Source: Sarea resinae (lineage: Eukaryota). From it: a DNA stretch of 64,000 nt. A program made the translations under genes and the position numbers. The notes beneath the pieces are model-generated. The model searched no databases. It was not told where the DNA came from and saw only the letters and a program-made list of their open reading frames with translations. The DNA is taken from contig JAPEUD010000035.1 in NCBI GenBank assembly GCA_026026165.1, forward strand, positions 62,001-126,000, in the 5' to 3' direction. Shown one piece after another: positions 2,217 to 21,102 of the stretch; positions within the stretch are counted from its first letter, which is position 1, and each line of letters begins with the position of its first letter.

Positions 2217-2365
2217 TACATGCATGGACCCTCGGACCTGGAGTATCGTGATATCCAGTGGATTAGTGATTATTGAATTCCGCCGTTACCACATCACCTT
2301 ATCGATTCCTCCCCTCCTCCTCCTCCTCCTCCTCCTCCTCCCAATTCTTCCTCAAACCCATCATC

Positions 2366-3738
2366 ATGGCAGCAGTTGCACCCAAGCTCCTCTACGCAAG
2401 TAGAGGCGCTTCAACAATTCGGTGCACGGCCACCCGTATACTTCCATCCACGGTACGATGTCTTGCCACCGCTGCCCCAGAAGCCTCAGCTACAGAGGGC
2501 ACAACGCAACGGCGCCCAACATCGTTCAAGGACCGCCTTAACTCAGGGCCCTCCTTTTCTGACTTTGTCGGCGGCCGAGAAGAGCCTCTGTCCCAGGAGG
2601 AAGCGCTGGAGCTGAAGACGGCAATGGTCGGCCCCAAAGGGAAACAGAAACAAATCGTCAGACTACCCGAATGGCTGAAGACACCCGTACCAGTGGGCAC
2701 CAATTTCAAGAAGATCCGACACGACCTGCGCGGCCTGAACCTGCACACCGTCTGCGAAGAGGCGCGCTGTCCCAACATCTCGGACTGCTGGGGTGGCTCC
2801 GACAAATCCGCCGCCACGGCTACCATCATGCTGATGGGCGACACCTGCACGCGCGGCTGCCGCTTCTGCTCGGTCAAGACGTCTCGCGCCCCTCCACCCC
2901 TCGATCCCCACGAGCCCGAACACACCGCCGAAGCTCTCTCGCGCTGGGGCCTGGGCTACGTGGTCCTAACCGCGGTTGACCGCGATGATCTCGCCGACGG
3001 CGGCGCCCATCATTTCGCCGAGACGGTCTCAAAGATCAAGTCGAAGGCGCCGGGCATGCTGGTCGAGGCGCTGACGGGTGACTATGGCGGGGACATGGAG
3101 ATGGTGAGCCTGATGGCGAGGAGCGGGCTCGACGTGTACGCGCACAACGTCGAGACGGTCGAGGCATTGACCGCTGGCGTGCGCGATCGACGAGCAACGT
3201 TCAGGCGGAGTATAGAGGTCCTGGACGCCGCTAAGAAGGCGAAGGAGGGCTTGATCACGAAGACGAGTATTATGCTCGGCTTCGGTGAGACCGAGGAACA
3301 GCTCTGGGACACTCTGAGAGGTGTGTCTCCTTTTTGACTTTTCCAGATCCCCCTATCTCACTTCCTCCTATCTCACTTCCTCCTATCTCACTCCCCCAAA
3401 TCACCCTCTCCCATCATTCCCCCAAAACACCGCTAACATATCCCCTAGCCCTCCGCGCAGTCGATGTGGACGTAGTGACGTTTGGACAATACATGCGGCC
3501 AACAAAACGGCACATGAAAGTCGAGTCGTACATCACGCCGGCGACATTTGAGCTGTGGCGCCAGCGCGCCCTGGACATGGGGTTCCTGTACTGTGCCTCT
3601 GGCCCCTTAGTCCGCAGCTCGTATAAAGCGGGCGAGGCCTTTATCGAGAACGTAGTCAAGAAACGTGCCAGCAAGGCGCAGACGACAATGGCGGACGCAG
3701 CGGGCGAGGTCAACAAGAATGGTGGCCTGGCTGTGTGA
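2366..3738 (+). CDS. LIP5: Mitochondrial lipoyl synthase (radical SAM)
   Basis: [12 protein letters not shown] auxiliary-cluster motif, CTRGCRFC radical-SAM motif, [11 protein letters not shown]-terminal motif, presequence-like N-terminus. Exons 2366-3320 and 3449-3738. Confidence 0.97.
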
Positions 3739-5804: not shown

Positions 5805-7121
5805 TTACAGCTCGCTAGCACGGTTTCCCAAGACCACCCCCCTCAACCCCATGAGCCCGAGCCACACAGCCTCCTCGGTGCGAATGGTCCGACTTCCCTG
5901 GCCCGGACACAGATCTACCCAATAATCAAACAACTGTCTCGGGCCCCCGTCCTCGGCGACCAGAGCGGCCAATTCCGGATCGGCTTTGGCGGCGGCCTCG
6001 AGGCCTGCGACGCCGCCGAAGACGACGAGGAGGTGGCGAAAAGGAGGGACAGGAGAGGTGGAGGCCGGGGAAGTGAGCTCGGAGAGTGGGATCCCGCGCT
6101 CCGAGGTTCCGAAGGTGAGGTCGTAGCCGCCGTCGTGGAGACATTCTGTGAAGACGGCGGAGAGTGAGCCGGCGCGCCGGATGGAATAGCCCCAGTAGTA
6201 GCCTGCTTCTTCGCGGGGAGCGTCTGGGGATACGGCTTCGGCCGTGAGTTCTGTCTCGTGGATAGAAGAGGACGAGGGGAATTTGAGCGTTACTCGTGTG
6301 TTGGGTGGGATCAGAGTGTTGATTTGGACGGGGTGGCCGAGTCCAGCTTCAACGAGCGAAATTGCTGGGATTGTCGTTGTCGTCGTAGAATCCTCGACCG
6401 TGGCGTCGTCGGAGGATGTTTTAGATTTCTTCTGCTTTTTCTTCTTGGACTTCTGCGAGGTGCTGGAGCTGGGTTGCTGCGTCGTGAAGGAGGGATCGTC
6501 GATCGTGACACCCTCGCGGTACTGACACCATTCTTCCGCGCGCAGATGGTGTGGCATGTCCAGACTGGGCAGAGTCCCTGCTGTGCGAAGATTTGGGTGT
6601 AGCGGGAACAGATATCTGCGTAGGTGTGGCGGCGTTTCGAGGTAGGAGAGCAGGTGGGCCAGAAAGAAATCCGGGTCCGAGTAGCCCGTGTATGCTTGGT
6701 CGTCTGATGCGTGATTACGGCCGCCATTGGACGACTCATCTCGCCTATGGTAATTGCTATTGTGGCTATAATTGTTGGGTTTCCCGTTCTTGGCCTGCCC
6801 GTCGTCGAAGATGACAATCTCGTCGACGCAGAAGACGGCGAGAGCGCGGGCGATTTGACCCGCCAGTGTCGTTTTGAGCTCGTGGGATTGAGCGCTAGGA
6901 AAGAAGGATGTCCGTCAGCGGGCTAGTTCCGAGAGGAACAAGAAGGACTTGGAAAACGGGCGGTGCTGTCTCTTGGCCTACTTTGCTATGATGCTACCGG
7001 GCAATGCAATGCTCAGGGTGTATGGCCGGCCCTGGCCGGGCTGGAAGACGGCGGTTGGCTTGGAGGTATCAACGCCATGGGAGTGGTTGCTCTGACCAGC
7101 AGATTCTCTCTTTCTCTTCAT
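5805..7121 (-). CDS. SPOUT-family RNA methyltransferase (DUF171 / SPOUT1-C9orf114-like)
   Basis: Exons 7121-6982 and 6894-5805. Motifs TLSIALPGSIIAN, LAGQIARALAVFCVDEIVIFDD, LSYLETPPHLR, GYYWGY, GTSERG, LVVFGG, PGQGSRTIRTEEA. Confidence 0.93.
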
Positions 7122-7937: not shown

Positions 7938-8919
7938 TGTTAATGAATGTCCTGCAGGGCGAGGCGATGATCTCGATGGTTCCTGCCTTTTTCTTCCATC
8001 AGTTTCCGGTGCTTCTCCCCAATATTGCAACTGCGCCTGGAACGTGACCTTGGCTGTTCTCATATGGGCGGGTAGACCTCGGACGCTTCTCGGTCGGCCA
8101 CTTCTTTCTCCTTCGTGGTGCGCGATACATCGTCAGCCTTCCAGCGCCACCCTTTCCCCCAGAATATTGACATCTGGGTTAGGGAAGGGAGGTATGGTAA
8201 GGAACAGTAGGGTGCTTCTGTCGGCGTGACTTCCTTCTCTATGGTACCGCCTTACCTAGATACCTACATTGCGTAGCTCACGATAGATGACAACTCCTGA
8301 GCCCGCTAACAACGAGTTGTCAAACGCCCTGCCATCTGATTTCCAAGTTGCTTTTGAGATTTCAGCTCCCAGATGCTTCTAACTCAGATACCCTTCGTGC
8401 AATGTCAAGGGCTCACTCCCTCAGGCACGTACAGGAAACGGAGCCTACAGGACCTTACCTTAATGTTCAGATCGAAGTCCATGTCCCAAGGTATTGAAGC
8501 ACTTTCCAAACGGGCACCCGGGAAGGCTGCATGCAACCATGCCACGATGGAGACCCGCCTTTTTTCTCCACAACAGGTCAAGATCGGGCCTCGATGAAAT
8601 GTGTATGAAATGTGTATGAAATGCGTCAGGGACGAAGGAGCAGGAGCGCACCCCACGACAGCATAAAACCATGAAGCTACGACATTTCCCTTTTCTTTTT
8701 CTCTTCTTATTCTCTTCTCACCTTCGCACACTGACTGCGGAAAACTTGTTATGTAGGCGGTCACTCATTCGTTCAGCCACGCAACGGCATCACCCTACAC
8801 ATCATTTTCCTCGCTTTAGCCACTTGAAGCATAATCACACTCTTTTTCTTGGTCTCTTGACGTCGCACTCTTTTACGTAGCTTATCAATCATTCCACTTC
8901 TCTCTTTCGGCCTACCACG

Positions 8920-10477
8920 ATGCCAGGTACAAAGCACGCCTCGCCGAGCCTCTCGGCGGCAGGTGACGACATCATCGCTCGAGTCAGGGAGCAGACCCTG
9001 CAAGCAGTAGCTCAGCGAAGTAGCGCCAGGACTCCTTTCACGTCTCCAGCTCAATCTTCTTCACGGCCAATCCGGGCCACTAGGGGGGATAGAAAATCTG
9101 CGGTACCGGATGCGCACGTGGAAGACAATCATCATCCTTCTTTTTCCCGTCTCACACGCCTTGGGCGTCCTGCAAATAGACCAGAGGCTCCCAAGCAGCT
9201 AATGAAAGCTTCTCTTGACGACCTCTCGTCCAACCTTCTGACAGGCGATCCAAAACTTACCCGCGAGGCTCTGATCAACAATGATCCTCTTCGTGAACTT
9301 TCTGCATTCAGCGAAGCCAGTTACTACTCCAGTCCCGAATTCGGAAGTCGGTCTTTCAAACATGACCAGATGCTCGGCTGTCCTACAGCTTTCAAGTCTT
9401 TCTCCTATGCTTCGGATAAGATGTTGCAAGGAGTCGGGAAGACCCTACCAGAGCCCGTCGATACCCGCTCATTTTACTCGATGCTTTCACGCATAGCTGC
9501 TGGATCGTCACAAAGCGACCGGGTGCCTTTGACAGACGAAGAGCAAGAGAACATATGGAACAGCGACACCCCTGTCCAGCAATTCGGGATGATCCAGGAC
9601 TTCATTGAACACACCAACCTTGAGGCTTCCACGGCGAGGGAGATTGAGCAACTTTGCAGGGAGGCTCAAGAATACCAGTTCAAGGTATGCGATTCTAGCG
9701 TACAGGAATCGTTCCATAGCTAATGACATTCGTAGTCGGTCTGCGTTAAGACTCAATGGGTCTCTCAAGCTGTTTCATATCTGCGGAGATCTGATGTTAC
9801 TGTCACCTCTGTGATTGATTGTCCTGAGCGAGACATCATATGGCCATCCAAAGATCTGCGAAAGAGAATCGTCGCGTAAGTCCACTCAATATTTTTCTTT
9901 GAGAAGGACGGCGAAAGAGACTTTGTAATGTTCTGGATGCTGATACTCTGGCAGTGAGGCCAAAGAGTCGACCAAAGCTGGCGCCAGTGATATTGAAATG
10001 ACTTTAGACTCCGGCTTACTTCTAGCGGAGAAGTACGAGGAAGTCTTTCGTATACTTGATGCTGTCCGCGACGCAACTCCCTTCATTAATCTCAGGGTTG
10101 TTATCGAAACTCATCGGCTCAGTGAATTATATATCATGATTGCTTGTCAGCTCGCCGAATTTGCCGGTGCAGATTACGTGGCGACTAGTGCGGGCGAAAG
10201 TGAAAGTTTGTCAACAACGGACGACGTGGTATTGATGCGTCAATATCTTCGGGGACGTAGCACGAAAGTCAAAGCCAGCGGTACTATCATGAGTCTGGAG
10301 CAGTGTGAAGAGACGATAATGCTGGGCGCCGATGTCATTGGAACCCGCTATGCCGTCGGCATCATGAACGAAGTAGCACGGAGAGCCAGACATGCGGTAT
10401 CAGAACAAAGCGCTGCACAAACCATGGTTCAATTATCGCAACAGAGGTCACCCTCGAGGGGACCAGACACCAATTAA
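8920..10477 (+). CDS. Deoxyribose-phosphate aldolase (DeoC/DERA)-like protein with degenerate active site and long N-terminal extension (475 aa)
   Basis: Exons 8920-9684, 9736-9875, 9955-10477. DeoC-like segments FIEHTNL, LCREAQEYQFKSVCV, AGASDIEM, LRVVIET, AGADYVATSAG, DDVVLMR, KVKASG, GADVIGT. Confidence 0.85.
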
Positions 10478-11909
10478 TGGCCTTCTACCAAGACTTCTCT
10501 TCCTCTGGATCTCTTAGTCTACCCTTCCATCCACCTCAGAGGTAAGACGGCTGCTGATTTTCTCCTATGGCGTCTATGATTTTGTCGCACCTTTTTCGAA
10601 GGGATATTCGGGGTACAGGCTTTTAGTTGTTTGCTCGAGTTCGTTCATTTCAACGGCCCGGCCTTTATGGAGAGCATTAATGTTTTTCCCGGGGCTGTTC
10701 CTTTTGACGGAGTATTGTCTAACAGTGTGTTTGATCCCAGTCCCTTTGCTCCATTTGATCATGCGTTGTCTGCGTTCTCGTCTTGGATTCTTCTGCACTA
10801 TGCATGTATCTTGCGTAGTATAATATCATAACCTGCGATTCCTTGGCACCTCATTCAGTCATGAATTCAACGTCATGGTGATAGCTTTGTCTCGATCGAC
10901 ACTGCACCGCCACTGGAACCGTCCAGGGGTTCTGATAGTGCTCTCGAGTACTCTGCCTACCGGAGAGCAAGACGTAGCTAAATAAAAACCAAAGTCCCTC
11001 GGCTTGAGGGTTCGCCTGAGATGGACTGGTCGACAAAGTCCCGTCGGCAGCCCCTCCATAAGCGAAAAGTGGGGGTGGAATGGGCAAGCCACAGCGGGGC
11101 AACTGCATGTCAACACCCTTGGAAGCTTGGAAGGGCCCGGGTCTTAGCTCGCGAGATGACGTACGGGTGAGATTGGATGCATCATAAGGGAGGCATCACT
11201 TGGATGATCTTCAGATTCGAGGACATTCGAGGATAGCCGTTTCTCGTACCGGTGCTCCCCTGAGCCATCGTGGTGAGACTTGTCGCTCGCTTCACGCCAT
11301 GGCGTTGATCGATCGGATTGTGACATCTGCCATGGCGGTGCGCCTTACCGTACCCTTACGTAGGTCGTCGGGTGCTTTGGAGAGAGAGCGCGACCCTTGT
11401 CTGGCCAACATTTCTTGAAGCGTTCCCCATCGCATCGCTGCATCGTCGCATCGTCACTGCCGCAACGGGGTGACACACGCACGAGAGCGACTGTCGACAA
11501 ACACCTCACCCTGCCATCAACTTCTGATGCTACGCAGTAGTGCCGGTGAGGTGACGATGATACGGACGAGGTACGAGGTCCACTACCCGGGCATGGAGTG
11601 AATTGACTTTGCTGTTGCCTTCTGCACCCTGCCGTTGCCTTCCTCATACCCGCCCGCATTCACGTCTGCCATCACGCATATCACCACTGCAATAACATCA
11701 TTGACCTCATCTCCCTCGTAATCCTCGTCCTTGTAGCCCTCCATTCCCCATCGGGTGATCCCAAAGGGTACTCGTCTCGGTCGGTGGCTGCATCATTGGC
11801 CCTAATTCCAAGTTTTCAAGGTCGTCGTCTCAAAGCGGGAGGACCCTGCCACACATTCACGCCCACCACCCCACGCTGCTGAACATAAAACACGCCCACC
11901 CGCTCTCTT

Positions 11910-18245: not shown

Positions 18246-20351
18246 TCATCCCAGATTACTATCGGACACAGACACATCCAGTGCCGGTACGCCGCGGGAG
18301 ACGGGGCCCTGAAAGGATGGCTGAGCTTCTCCCACGTTCTGCATCTCCAATCCTCCGCCCTGCTGTTCTGGAACAAGTGGAGCCTGCCTCTTCCCTCTCC
18401 GGGCACCAAATCTCTGGTCACCCTCTTCGTATTTTCTCTTGAAGTGCAGGTACGTTGGAGGTCTCGGTCTCCCTAACACAACGATCCAATTCTTCAAAAA
18501 ATTTCCCTGGGTGAAGGGCCGATGCCGGTCCTTCTTCACGAACTTGTGGGAGTTCAGGTATTCCCTAGTTGTCTCCCCTCGTCCCATGAGAAAGAAATGA
18601 TATCCCCAAAGAGATCCAGGGTAGGGAGTGATGAGGATACCGTAAATAAACATGGCGAAGGGGACACGGAGATGGTTGATGGCCTTGCCGAAAGAGATGT
18701 GCTCTCTGGATCTGTAGACCAAGATATGAGCCAGGCTCGCGCCGAGAAGGAAGAGTCCGAGGAGAGTGCCCGAGGTAACGAAGGTGAAGAAATAGCGGTA
18801 ATTGCGACGACCAACGCAATTGTTTAACCAGACGCAGTGGTGATCTTGAGTCTCAACGCAATTGTCGCAAACTCTGCAGTGGTGGCCCCGCGGCGGTCTC
18901 CAGATATTGCATGTTTTACAGTATTTGGTTGGTACCTCCATAGCAGCACTAGCCGAAGCAGCAGACTTGATCATTGTCCAGTCTGTAGTGGGGGGACCAA
19001 GAGTAAGGGGATCCGCATCCTCGCTTGGAGGCGGCAGCTGATGTAAATTTCGAGGGAGGATCTTGAACATATTAGCTAGAGCTCTCAAGTCTTCATTGGG
19101 TGAGGACTCACTCCAGGGTCTGTAATGGAAGCATGAACAAAAGATGAAATACATATTAGGAAAAGATACGCAAAGACTATCGGTATGGCGGGAGAAACGT
19201 GATGCCAAAGCCAAGGTGCTCTGCATAATGATCATTAGCATTACGACTTCCGCAAAGTGATTATGGTGTTGGACGTACGAGAAACCAAAGAAGAGACCCG
19301 CAGGTACGACTACAACGATCCCAGTCACTATGTTGATGGGCCTATCCCTTGCATTCTGTAATCGGCCTCCCCAGCAGAAAATGGTATTACCAGAGAAGTA
19401 CTGGAAGTTGCTTCCGAGGTTCTTGGTAACGTCGGGTACCATTTTGGTCGGTACAGACCTTGGGGACGAAGCTGAAGACGACAATTTTTCGCGGCCTTGC
19501 GTATCGTCGTATCTAGAAGCCCGCTGACTTCTACCAGGAAGCAGAAAACTTGAGCGAAACGACCCGGGAGATCTCTGATTCGACCCCAGCGCGCTAGATG
19601 AATGTTTCTGGGTTTTGCTCAGATCGAGATGAGGCGGGCCCTTATTGGCTGATCGATCCTGCAGCGGTCTCAGGCTGTCCGGCACACTTCGAACGGTGCC
19701 GTTTCCCGCAGGACTTGTGTTTGCCGTCGCCCTATCGGTTCCTTCTCTGTCCGTGAACTCTGTGCCTCGAGATGGCGGAGGTAGATACTCGATATCTTGG
19801 TGTATGACAGGATCGTGAGGCTGGGTCCCGTTTGAGCCAAGGCTATGCCGATTGGTATTCCTGGCAAACGGATCTCTGAAGCTACCTTCGTCGATCGAGG
19901 CTTGTCCCGTAGTCGAAGGTCGACCGCCGCGCTGCGCCTGGAGACGCTGCGAACTCATCGGCCGAAAGAAAGAAGGCGAGGTGATCGAAGGGACATGGGT
20001 CTTGCTCGTCGAGCTTTGAGGCCTGCCCGCTATTGACGTCCCGGTGATACTCTCGCCCGTTATACTGCCCCGTGGCTGCATTGAGAACATCCCCCGTCGG
20101 GACGGAGGAGCTTGCGACCAGGTGTTGCGCTGGGAAGAGACACCCGTCGCGGCCGATGAAGGACGCGGCGAGGCGGCATGTTGCCTTGCGCTGTCGGTGT
20201 ATTGCTGGTCGCCATCTTCTGACGCTATATCAGTCATGCGAGAAGAGATTGCGCTCTCCGGGCGATGGGTCTCTGACAAGGTGCCCAGGGGGGTCGGAAA
20301 GGTGCTGCTCGCGGGGGATTGAGGAAATGTCGGGCTGGTCGGAGAGGCCAT
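18246..20351 (-). CDS. ERF2: DHHC palmitoyltransferase, Erf2 family
   Basis: KYCKTCNIWRPPRGHHCRVCDNCVETQDHHCVWLNNCVGRRNYRYF, TTRE motif, GNTIFCWGGRLQN. Introns 19221-19278 and 19062-19111. Confidence 0.93.
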   Translation of the reverse strand: MASPTSPTFPQSPASSTFPTPLGTLSETHRPESAISSRMTDIASEDGDQQYTDSARQHAASPRPSSAATGVSSQRNTWSQAPPSRRGMFSMQPRGSITGESITGTSIAGRPQSSTSKTHVPSITSPSFFRPMSSQRLQAQRGGRPSTTGQASIDEGSFRDPFARNTNRHSLGSNGTQPHDPVIHQDIEYLPPPSRGTEFTDREGTDRATANTSPAGNGTVRSVPDSLRPLQDRSANKGPPHLDLSKTQKHSSSALGSNQRSPGSFRSSFLLPGRSQRASRYDDTQGREKLSSSASSPRSVPTKMVPDVTKNLGSNFQYFSGNTIFCWGGRLQNARDRPINIVTGIVVVVPAGLFFGFSYVQHHNHFAEVVMLMIIMQSTLALASRFSRHTDSLCVSFPNMYFIFCSCFHYRPWSESSPNEDLRALANMFKILPRNLHQLPPPSEDADPLTLGPPTTDWTMIKSAASASAAMEVPTKYCKTCNIWRPPRGHHCRVCDNCVETQDHHCVWLNNCVGRRNYRYFFTFVTSGTLLGLFLLGASLAHILVYRSREHISFGKAINHLRVPFAMFIYGILITPYPGSLWGYHFFLMGRGETTREYLNSHKFVKKDRHRPFTQGNFLKNWIVVLGRPRPPTYLHFKRKYEEGDQRFGARRGKRQAPLVPEQQGGGLEMQNVGEAQPSFQGPVSRGVPALDVSVSDSNLG

Positions 20352-21102
20352 GGCGAGATTGGAATCGGCCGATTAGATGTTAGATGAGAATTAGGGTCCA
20401 ATTGAATGGTGTATATCAGCAATCCTGTCGCATCCTGATCGTATGTCGTTGTTTTTTTCAGATTGGTATAGAAGATTAGGGCAGCCTGGCTCGAAAGACG
20501 GGGAGAACAGAAGCGACGAAAGAGAGAACCAGGAAAGGAGCGTCCAAGACGGCTGAAGAAAAGAAGACAGCAGCTTGCGTGAAATGGTAGGAAATATGAA
20601 AGAGAGACGGACACGGCGTTGCGGGAAGCTGACGGCGGTGGATTCTTGGTGGTGACACGGCGCGAGGGCGTGAGAAATGACTTACCGCCATTGTTCTGCA
20701 CTAAGGGGCTCCGGGCTCATCTTACGACGGGCGACTTGGGCAGTACCTGTGGGCAGCACTGGACTTGCGGAGAGATGGAAGTACTCCTGCGTATATCACG
20801 GCAGTGCTCCCTGATCACATGACCAACCCGATGGCCCTTCCCAAGAAGGGGAAGCCTCCCAGGCCTCCGCCGTACGCCGCCAATCAGCCGGCGGGTAACT
20901 CCATTCCTCCTCCACCTTCCGCCCGCCAAGCTCAGCCGATCCAAGCTCGCTCGCTCGCTCGCTCACCTCACCCCATCACGAACCTCCATCCCGAATTTTG
21001 ATTCTCTCTCCCGTCTGCACGTCAATTGCAACTCCCACCACTACCACCACCCATCAAAACAACATCTCCACTCCAAACATCTCCAAACCCCACAACGTAA
21101 CA

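Follow-up and report, generated by a model that had tools for sequence, protein, structure and literature searches.

Deoxyribose-phosphate aldolase (DERA, DeoC) is used in industrial biocatalysis and serves as a textbook example of a class I aldolase. Excerpts of two reviews covering the Escherichia coli enzyme assign the Schiff base to Lys167, and the protonation and deprotonation of intermediates to Asp102 and Lys201 (PMC8403123; PMC6244999). The first excerpt lists Lys172, Ser238 and Gly205 as phosphate ligands, with Gly171, Val206, Gly236 and Ser239 contacting the phosphate via water, and gives Lys155 as the catalytic lysine of Bacillus halodurans DERA (PMC8403123); the second reports that exchange of Lys167 always costs function and that Lys201 works by perturbing the pKa of Lys167 (PMC6244999). 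In those parts of the literature on pseudoenzymes, on the catalytic lysine and paralogs and on fungal DERAs that the searches returned, no natural eukaryotic DERA without the Schiff-base lysine is described. The gene analysed here occupies positions 8920–10,477 of a 64,000-nucleotide stretch of Sarea resinae DNA (assembly GCA_026026165.1, contig JAPEUD010000035.1, positions 62,001 to 126,000, forward strand), called the window below, and encodes a DERA homolog of 475 amino acids (aa) with alanine at the Schiff-base position. Sarea resinae is a resin-dwelling ascomycete of the class Sareomycetes. We read the gene, at about even probability and from its sequence, as a fungal DERA/DeoC descendant that would be non-catalytic and kept as a folded, fast-evolving pseudoenzyme.

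The membership of the protein in the DERA family is well documented. Its score against TIGR00126, the deoC equivalog model, is 147.2 bits (cut-off 117.3, E 4e-43), residues 227–439 covering model positions 4–210 of 211. The best solved relative by sequence is the aldolase of Coccidioides immitis (PDB 3oa3; E 9e-34, residues 221–444), and bacterial DERAs come next. The AlphaFold2 model, built on alignment A1 of 150 sequences, contains an eight-stranded barrel. Its predicted local distance difference test (pLDDT) values, averaged over 10-residue blocks, are at least 90 across residues 231–460 except in blocks 281–290 (79) and 381–390 (65), and block 221–230 has 84; A1 is made of canonical DERAs, so these high values partly reflect them and are no proof that the Sarea sequence folds. 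In Foldseek the model overlays the solved DERAs 3oa3, 4xbk, 6d33 and 8qps with template modelling (TM) scores, normalised by target, of 0.79–0.92 and root-mean-square deviations of 1.9–2.4 Å, the best match being 3oa3 (E 2.6e-19, 35% identity). An earlier reading of the letters alone (the sequence-only reading) had traced the DeoC barrel in the last ~250 aa and proposed such a superposition, which bore it out. The ESM Atlas model of the whole protein is weaker (predicted TM score 0.55, mean pLDDT 0.58). The C-terminal 220 residues are thus, by prediction, a DERA TIM barrel, and the gene is a real, lesion-free member of the DERA family.

The main feature of this barrel is the state of its catalytic face. 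HMMER aligned the Sarea segment GADYVATSAG with GADYVKTSTG of 3oa3 and with GADFVKTSTG of Bacillus halodurans, the aligned Lys of the latter being residue 155 by count. E. coli numbering is used throughout and derives from aligned ranges (query 299–435 to chain 85/86–228/229) and from motif correspondence, not from a residue-level alignment. Residue frequencies were taken from the best 150 rows of a phmmer search and from a 127-sequence fungal set, which consists of nine earlier rows and 118 new rows of a search seeded with a Candelaria pacifica protein (P0031; 120 listed of 6376 rows with E ≤ 1e-10). The positions concerned are as follows.

10181..10183, + strand: A378 (GCG) for the Schiff-base Lys (E. 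coli Lys167); Lys in 121 of the 127 fungal sequences and in 146 of the 150 best library matches.
9995..9997, + strand: E316 for the Asp102 equivalent; Asp in 125 of 127 fungal sequences.
10094..10096, + strand: R349 for the Lys137 equivalent; Lys in 122 of 127, Arg in 5 of 127, namely in all five lysine-less proteins.
9607..9609, + strand: E230 for the Asp of the DHT strand; Asp in 124 of 127 fungal sequences.
10283..10285, + strand: T412 for the Gly205 equivalent in the phosphate pocket (role from an excerpt of PMC8403123); Gly in 121 of 127.
10346..10351, + strand: R433-Y434 for the Ser238-Ser239 equivalents in the phosphate pocket (role from the same excerpt of PMC8403123); Ser at the first position in 126 of 127.
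10271..10273, + strand: K408, the kept equivalent of Lys201; invariant in A1 (150 sequences).

At the lysine column the best 150 phmmer rows have 146 Lys, the exceptions being Sarea (Ala), P0031 (Cys), P0056 (Thr) and P0132 (Asp), and the fungal set has 121 Lys, three Cys, two Ala and one Met. Compared with E. coli DeoC (EC 4.1.2.4; PDB 1jcl, 1ktn), which belongs to the same family, the Sarea protein keeps the equivalents of Lys201, Cys47 (Cys258) and Gly171 (Gly382), whereas those of Lys167, Asp102, Gly205, Ser238 and Ser239 are all replaced. The loss of the Schiff-base lysine that the sequence-only reading had proposed therefore holds against both comparison sets, and so does the joint change of proton-relay and phosphate-pocket residues (Asp102 to Glu, Gly205 to Thr, Ser238-Ser239 to Arg-Tyr). 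The canonical fungal enzyme 3oa3 shares with the Sarea protein the TIM barrel, the motif order and the SVCV and VKASG motifs; the Sarea protein differs from it by Lys to Ala at the Schiff-base position, Asp102 to Glu, Lys137 to Arg, DHT to EHT and four rewritten loops. These are all four loops of the catalytic face: VIGFHEGT reads VIDCPERD, TSTGFxGxGA reads TSAGESESLS (the FxGxGA loop after strand 6 being ESESLS), KASGG reads KASGT and RLGTSxG reads VIGTRYA. A six-residue insert, LRKRIV, after strand 3 and ~187 extra N-terminal residues further set the protein apart from canonical fungal DERAs.

Three marks of a functional DERA are thus absent or incomplete, namely the Schiff-base lysine, the Asp102/Lys201 relay pair and the phosphate pocket. 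For the relay, K408 is kept but the Asp102 equivalent is Glu316, a conservative swap compatible with some function. Homology to an active family combined with missing key catalytic residues is one mark of a pseudoenzyme, and the Sarea protein shows both. On this sequence evidence it would no longer be able to run the class I Schiff-base aldol reaction, a claim that we hold jointly with the pseudoenzyme reading and at the same even weight. It resembles pseudoenzymes in general in that the fold is kept and catalytic residues are erased. Its eukaryotic gene stands alone and is interrupted by introns, and the barrel is preceded by an extension that is predicted to be disordered.

It is conceivable, though improbable, that the protein is instead an altered enzyme, in which Lys408 or another residue serves as the nucleophile, or in which the remodelled pocket runs a Schiff-base-free reaction on a different substrate. 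K408, A409, T379, G382 and E353 are invariant throughout A1, the Sarea protein included, and the Cys47 equivalent is kept. Charge is preserved at the replaced residues (Asp to Glu twice, Lys to Arg), which hints that a buried polar network matters, and Arg433 stands at the phosphate site. Such chemistry is, however, hard to reconcile with the excerpted account in which Lys167 is not exchangeable and Lys201 acts via the pKa of Lys167 (PMC6244999). The substitute lysine that the sequence-only reading had named as a possible objection is missing as well: no replacement lysine occurs at the aligned inward-facing strand positions, and Lys260 sits where 99% of canonical fungal DERAs have Arg. The radical rewriting of the four active-site loops also speaks against a retained enzyme.

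The gene model on which these residues lie is simple. The segments 8920–9684, 9736–9875 and 9955–10,477 of the + strand join in frame to 1428 nt, giving 475 codons followed by a stop.

8920..9684, + strand: exon 1, residues 1–255, a single open frame from ATG 8920; N-terminal extension, barrel strand 1 and first helix.
8920..9480, + strand, within exon 1: N-terminal extension, residues 1–187, Ser/Ala/Arg/Pro-rich, with in-frame codon bias; predicted disordered save for helix 12–34.
9685..9735, + strand: intron 1, 51 nt, GTATGC...TAG, with GT..AG ends and a CTAAT branch-like site.
9736..9875, + strand: exon 2, residues 256–302 (last codon split); strands 2 and 3.
9876..9954, + strand: intron 2, 79 nt, GTAAGT..CAG, canonical ends.
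9955..10477, + strand: exon 3, residues 302–475 and stop; strands 4–8 and C-terminal helix; alone matches DERAs in the PDB (E 5e-19).

Removal of intron 1 fuses ...EYQFK with SVCVK... and yields the contiguous F-x-SVCV motif of the homologs, while its retention leads to a stop at 9721–9723. Exon 2 bears the Cys47 equivalent C258 (9742–9744), and in it VIDCPERD replaces VIGFHEGT. A protein database search with exon 3 alone retrieved the NCBI entry "MAG: hypothetical protein M1819_003700 [Sarea resinae]" (P0001; MAG, metagenome-assembled genome), 475 aa and encoded on a 234-kb contig, to which the spliced product is identical letter for letter. The clean frame of three exons and 475 aa described by the sequence-only reading is confirmed by this splicing and identity, and its motif positions are all correct: SVCV at 9736, VIDCP at 9811, DIEMT at 9989 (Glu at 9995), LRVVIET at 10,091 (Arg at 10,094), DYVATSAG at 10,172 (GCG at 10,181–10,183), KASGT at 10,271 and VIGTRY at 10,334.

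An assembly or consensus error that made the GCG codon, or a misannotated start that made the extension, would be a very improbable explanation of these data. The DNA comes from one metagenome-derived assembly only, other MAG models of the family are visibly wrong (446 and 485 aa proteins of Teloschistes; the N-terminus of P0170), and translation from Met188 would yield a canonical-length protein. An error in one codon would, however, not produce the dozens of coordinated differences across the barrel. The Logan re-assembly of the sole public run carrying the locus is identical over 8800–10,600, with 0 differences and a word depth of 342, and hence also at the Ala codon, where an assembly error had been considered beforehand. 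That run is probably the source of the window itself, so the comparison excludes an assembler slip and is no independent biological confirmation. It is a run of DNA; no RNA run is among those listed as containing the locus. As to the start codon, ATG 8920 has A at −3 and ATG 9481 (Met188) has T, and the extension lies in the uninterrupted frame of the barrel and shows codon bias.

Whether the gene is kept or decaying was considered against a set of 119 canonical fungal DERAs, from which the partial P0033, the truncated P0284, P0263 with its Met in place of Lys, and the four lysine-less Candelariales proteins were excluded. Barrel identity of the Sarea protein to the canonical consensus is 37.9%, as against a minimum of 45.3% and a median of 67.4% for canonical proteins (n = 119); expressed as difference from consensus, this is 62% vs a median of 33%, an excess of ~30 percentage points. 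The rival explanation, which we regard as somewhat unlikely, is decay: DERA would be dispensable in this fungus and the ortholog drifting under relaxed constraint, perhaps recently dead, the frame being open because death was recent or because a misfolding product is selected against only weakly. In a neutral simulation, in which random substitutions were placed on the coding sequence of the gene itself (300 runs per level), 20/300 runs (~7%) were free of stops at 10% amino-acid change, a proportion compatible with recent death. At 20% change only 1/300 runs remained stop-free and at 30% 0/300, which argues that most of the excess divergence did not arise neutrally.

The barrel strands point in the same direction. 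Here the residue departs from the consensus at 19 of the 39 columns, and these substitutions average +0.95 in BLOSUM62 (e.g., D-E, R-K, E-D, L-I, K-R, I-V and F-Y). In 2000 neutral simulations of these codons the score averaged −0.51 and peaked at 0.84; none attained +0.95. Both introns keep canonical signals, their splicing restores conserved motifs, and the ~190-codon extension is open and codon-biased in frame. A lysine-less DERA is, moreover, stably conserved across Candelariaceae genera, as described below. Plain decay is disfavoured by the uninterrupted frame, by undamaged splice sites and by the conservative character of the strand changes.

Several observations weigh against a maintained pseudoenzyme and favour decay, besides the dependence of the pLDDT values on canonical sequences mentioned above. 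Sarea departs from the 119 canonical DERAs at 38 of the 82 columns with a conservation of 90% or more; six of these 38 belong to its own insert LRKRIV. Averaged over the whole barrel, the 131 differences score −0.44 in BLOSUM62, a value lower than the canonical 5–95% range (−0.34 to 0.57) and near the average of neutral runs (−0.55). Taken separately, helices score −0.49 and loops −0.93, each under the 5th percentile of the canonical set. Of the 32 hydrophobic columns that changed, 19 (59%) received another hydrophobic residue; the neutral expectation is 47%, with a maximum of 72%. The GC content at third codon positions (GC3) is 0.49–0.50, compared with 0.58–0.71 in three neighbouring genes, which fits low expression or relaxed selection. 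The score against Pfam DeoC (PF01791) is 21.3 bits, under the gathering score of 23.8 and well under the 47–84 bits of canonical fungal relatives; the Pfam model, to which an alignment had been proposed beforehand, thus falls short of its threshold, and TIGR00126 passes its own.

The searches for relatives add to these points. The 90% cluster of the Sarea protein is a singleton, with one member on one contig. Word-based searches for close relatives (the whole protein vs proteins of 261–832 aa; exon 3 vs longer proteins) gave only the protein itself, and two metagenome scans, with peptide patterns of the protein and with a degenerate GADYVATSAG pattern, found no relative. In the maximum-likelihood tree (IQ-TREE, LG+C20+F+G4), made from 33 hand-picked fungal rows and six hand-picked rows taken as bacterial outgroups, their origin being assumed, the Sarea protein lies on the fungal side of a 99/87 branch and has the longest terminal branch of all, 2.38 vs a median of 0.27, i.e., ~9 times longer than that of canonical fungal DERAs. 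Its basal position among the fungi is attributable to the tendency of long branches to go there. A phmmer search of 1.84 billion representatives returned only the protein itself below E 1e-30, the next match standing at 1e-28 with 39% identity. The Sarea protein is the most divergent fungal DERA among those examined.

Taken together, the sequence suggests a picture in which the barrel core remains under fold-preserving constraint and the surfaces and the catalytic face have been released or re-selected. The sequence-only reading had spoken of an otherwise preserved gene, which does not stand in view of the 38 altered conserved columns, the near-neutral whole-barrel score and the Pfam result. 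Its preference for a non-catalytic function rather than decay fares better: purely neutral decay is unlikely from the 1/300 stop-free runs at 20% change and the strand score of +0.95, but the pattern over the whole barrel is near neutral. The scaffold or sensor role that it put forward, and any parallel to human DERA, which it describes as recruited to stress granules, would be conjectural. Repeat-induced point mutation (RIP) was tried as the cause of the divergence and rejected, the RIP indices being ordinary (TpA/ApT 0.61 and (CpA+TpG)/(ApC+GpT) 1.27 in the gene, similar to the whole window).

In the 64-kb window tblastn with five DERA proteins recovered this locus only. Among the matches listed (120 of 6376) in a word-based search of proteins, not of genomes, no canonical Sarea, Candelaria or Candelina DERA appears. 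A canonical paralog is expected at ~50% identity, well within the rows listed, which suggests that the lysine-less proteins are the only DERA descendants of the Sarea, Candelaria and Candelina genomes. As this absence rests on listed protein matches and not on a genome search, it too tempers the case for a maintained pseudoenzyme.

That such proteins can be kept is indicated most strongly by the Candelariaceae clade. Four lysine-less DERAs were found in it: P0031 of a Candelaria pacifica MAG, P0168 of Candelina submexicana, P0169 of Candelina mexicana, and P0170. All four have Arg at the Lys137 position, and the Lys167 position is occupied by Cys in three of them and by Ala in P0170. P0170 also carries Glu at the Asp102 position, while the other three keep Asp102. 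The Gly205 equivalent is Ser in three of the four, and the loop after strand 6 is rewritten. The N-terminal part of P0170 is garbled in its gene model. In the tree the four proteins group together with 100/100 support, separated from the rest by a long stem (0.59) and from one another by short branches; their barrels are 70–97% identical to one another, they share a ~15-residue insertion after strand 6, and their C-terminal tails, which include a conserved block, are 72–93% identical. Barrel identity to the canonical consensus is 55–56% for the three complete proteins and 48% for the partly mis-modelled P0170, and the Candelariales majority differs at 15 of the 82 highly conserved columns. We read this clade, from its sequences, as a lysine-less DERA descendant that appears to be under purifying selection in at least three genera.

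The Sarea and Candelariaceae proteins have in common the loss of the Schiff-base Lys, the change of Lys137 to Arg and the rewritten post-strand-6 loop. They are, however, only 34–38% identical; the Candelariaceae proteins keep DHT, VIGFHEGT and RLGTS, are without the long N-terminal extension, and have the ~15-residue insertion and the conserved C-terminal tail to themselves. Forcing Sarea and Candelariales together in the tree cost 1.07 log-likelihood units (approximately unbiased (AU) test, p 0.43), for a group that was chosen after the residues had been seen and that involves long branches; a single origin of their lysine-less DERAs is thus neither shown nor rejected. Published phylogenomic analyses, as represented in an excerpt of PMC12238968, conflict on the kinship of the two classes. 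Columns 349, 376, 378, 383, 385, 387, 388, 412 and 422 are changed in both groups, mostly to different residues, and for this reason we read them as an independent loss or release of the same functional sites.

If the Sarea protein is indeed a maintained pseudoenzyme, the fungal DERA gene would have lost its Schiff-base chemistry in Sarea while an intact, spliceable gene persisted. The protein would presumably still be made, and selection would act on the fold and on something other than the cleavage of deoxyribose 5-phosphate. Most plausibly, the remodelled face would bind a ligand or a partner, Arg433 being predicted to occupy the site at which Ser238 bound phosphate, and the disordered N-terminus may offer interaction sites. 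That the same sites appear to have been freed independently in Candelariaceae suggests a catalysis-independent role of fungal DERA which outlived the enzyme. A more far-reaching scenario, which we consider speculative and unlikely as a whole, would be that the fungal DERA barrel has such a second role, that lichen- and resin-associated ascomycetes of reduced metabolism (Sarea, Candelariaceae) shed the chemistry and kept the barrel, maybe from one ancient lysine-less ancestor, and that the Sarea protein was further rebuilt for ligand sensing or scaffolding, acquiring a new basic pocket (Arg433, Arg349, the LRKRIV insert) and a disordered N-terminal arm. The two fungal lineages would in any case form a natural experiment that could show why a DERA barrel persists without catalysis and which positions are then released; released in both are the equivalents of Lys137, Lys167 and Gly205, together with the post-strand-6 loop.

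The result also bears on annotation. Since the Sarea protein passes the TIGR00126 equivalog cut-off, automatic pipelines would label it an active deoxyribose-phosphate aldolase, and such a label would wrongly add deoxyribose catabolism to metabolic reconstructions of these fungi. Among bacteria, the cluster of P0056 counts nine members, of which one bears the name "deoxyribose-phosphate aldolase [Spirochaetia bacterium]"; the equivalents of Asp102, Lys137 and Lys167 are His, Asn and Thr in it, and it is a further lysine-less DERA lineage annotated as active enzyme. In the fungal DERA P0263 (275 aa), which stems from a read assembly, the Schiff-base position is occupied by Met, where P0267 and P0279, of the same length, have Lys; this Met may be a variant or a sequencing error.

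The N-terminal extension was put at ~220 aa by the sequence-only reading, a figure that agrees with the ~225 aa found relative to bacterial DERAs but has to be reduced to ~187 aa relative to canonical fungal DERAs, since 229 residues precede the DHT strand in Sarea and ~40 do so in the canonical fungal proteins. Ser makes up 14% of its residues, Ala 10%, and Arg and Pro 9% each. In the AlphaFold2 model pLDDT is <50 for residues 37–179, and the lone helix 12–34 has a pLDDT of ~74–82. From its sequence the extension looks coding: it forms one uninterrupted frame with the barrel, a 200-codon open stretch occurred in 11 of 20,000 mononucleotide shuffles, and a codon-usage model trained on ten long open reading frames (ORFs) of the window assigns it a log-likelihood of +0.162 in its own frame, comparable with the 0.09–0.19 of the training genes, and values below zero in the five others.

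No relatives of the extension were found in Pfam, and phmmer gave no match with E <5 among 166 other proteins; the phmmer library result consists of the best 150 rows, and weak extension-only matches could lie outside it. BLASTP against the extensions of the Thelocarpon, Teloschistes and Penicillium taxi proteins gave no match. The ESM Atlas offered no usable feature match, all structural rows having TM ≤0.27. The long library DERAs (430–516 aa) were considered as relatives and rejected, 23 sharing a different, unrelated N-domain. These 23 DERAs of 341–516 aa (P0006 and 22 others) have canonical residues; their common N-terminal domain, 125–297 aa long, weakly matches Pfam Flavoprotein (PF02441) in three of the nine members scanned and appears prokaryotic. 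The Teloschistes extensions were likewise rejected, a different domain being fused upstream: in P0180 and P0181 (446 and 485 aa, from a Teloschistes MAG) extensions of 210–243 aa, which share 52% identity, precede a canonical DERA, and these models are probably merged gene annotations.

Three neighbouring genes were identified in the window. The ORF at 2270–3337 (+) matches lipoyl synthase (LIAS_N and Radical_SAM), that at 5805–6914 (−) a putative RNA methyltransferase (Methyltrn_RNA_3), and that at 18,246–20,372 (−) a DHHC palmitoyltransferase. All three are ordinary housekeeping genes without evident link to the DERA-like gene. Upstream of the latter, ~300 nt from the start codon, a tandem repeat occupies window positions 8598–8630 and consists of two copies of ATGTGTATGAA followed by ATGCG; a CT-rich tract at ~8680–8730 lies between this repeat and the start codon.

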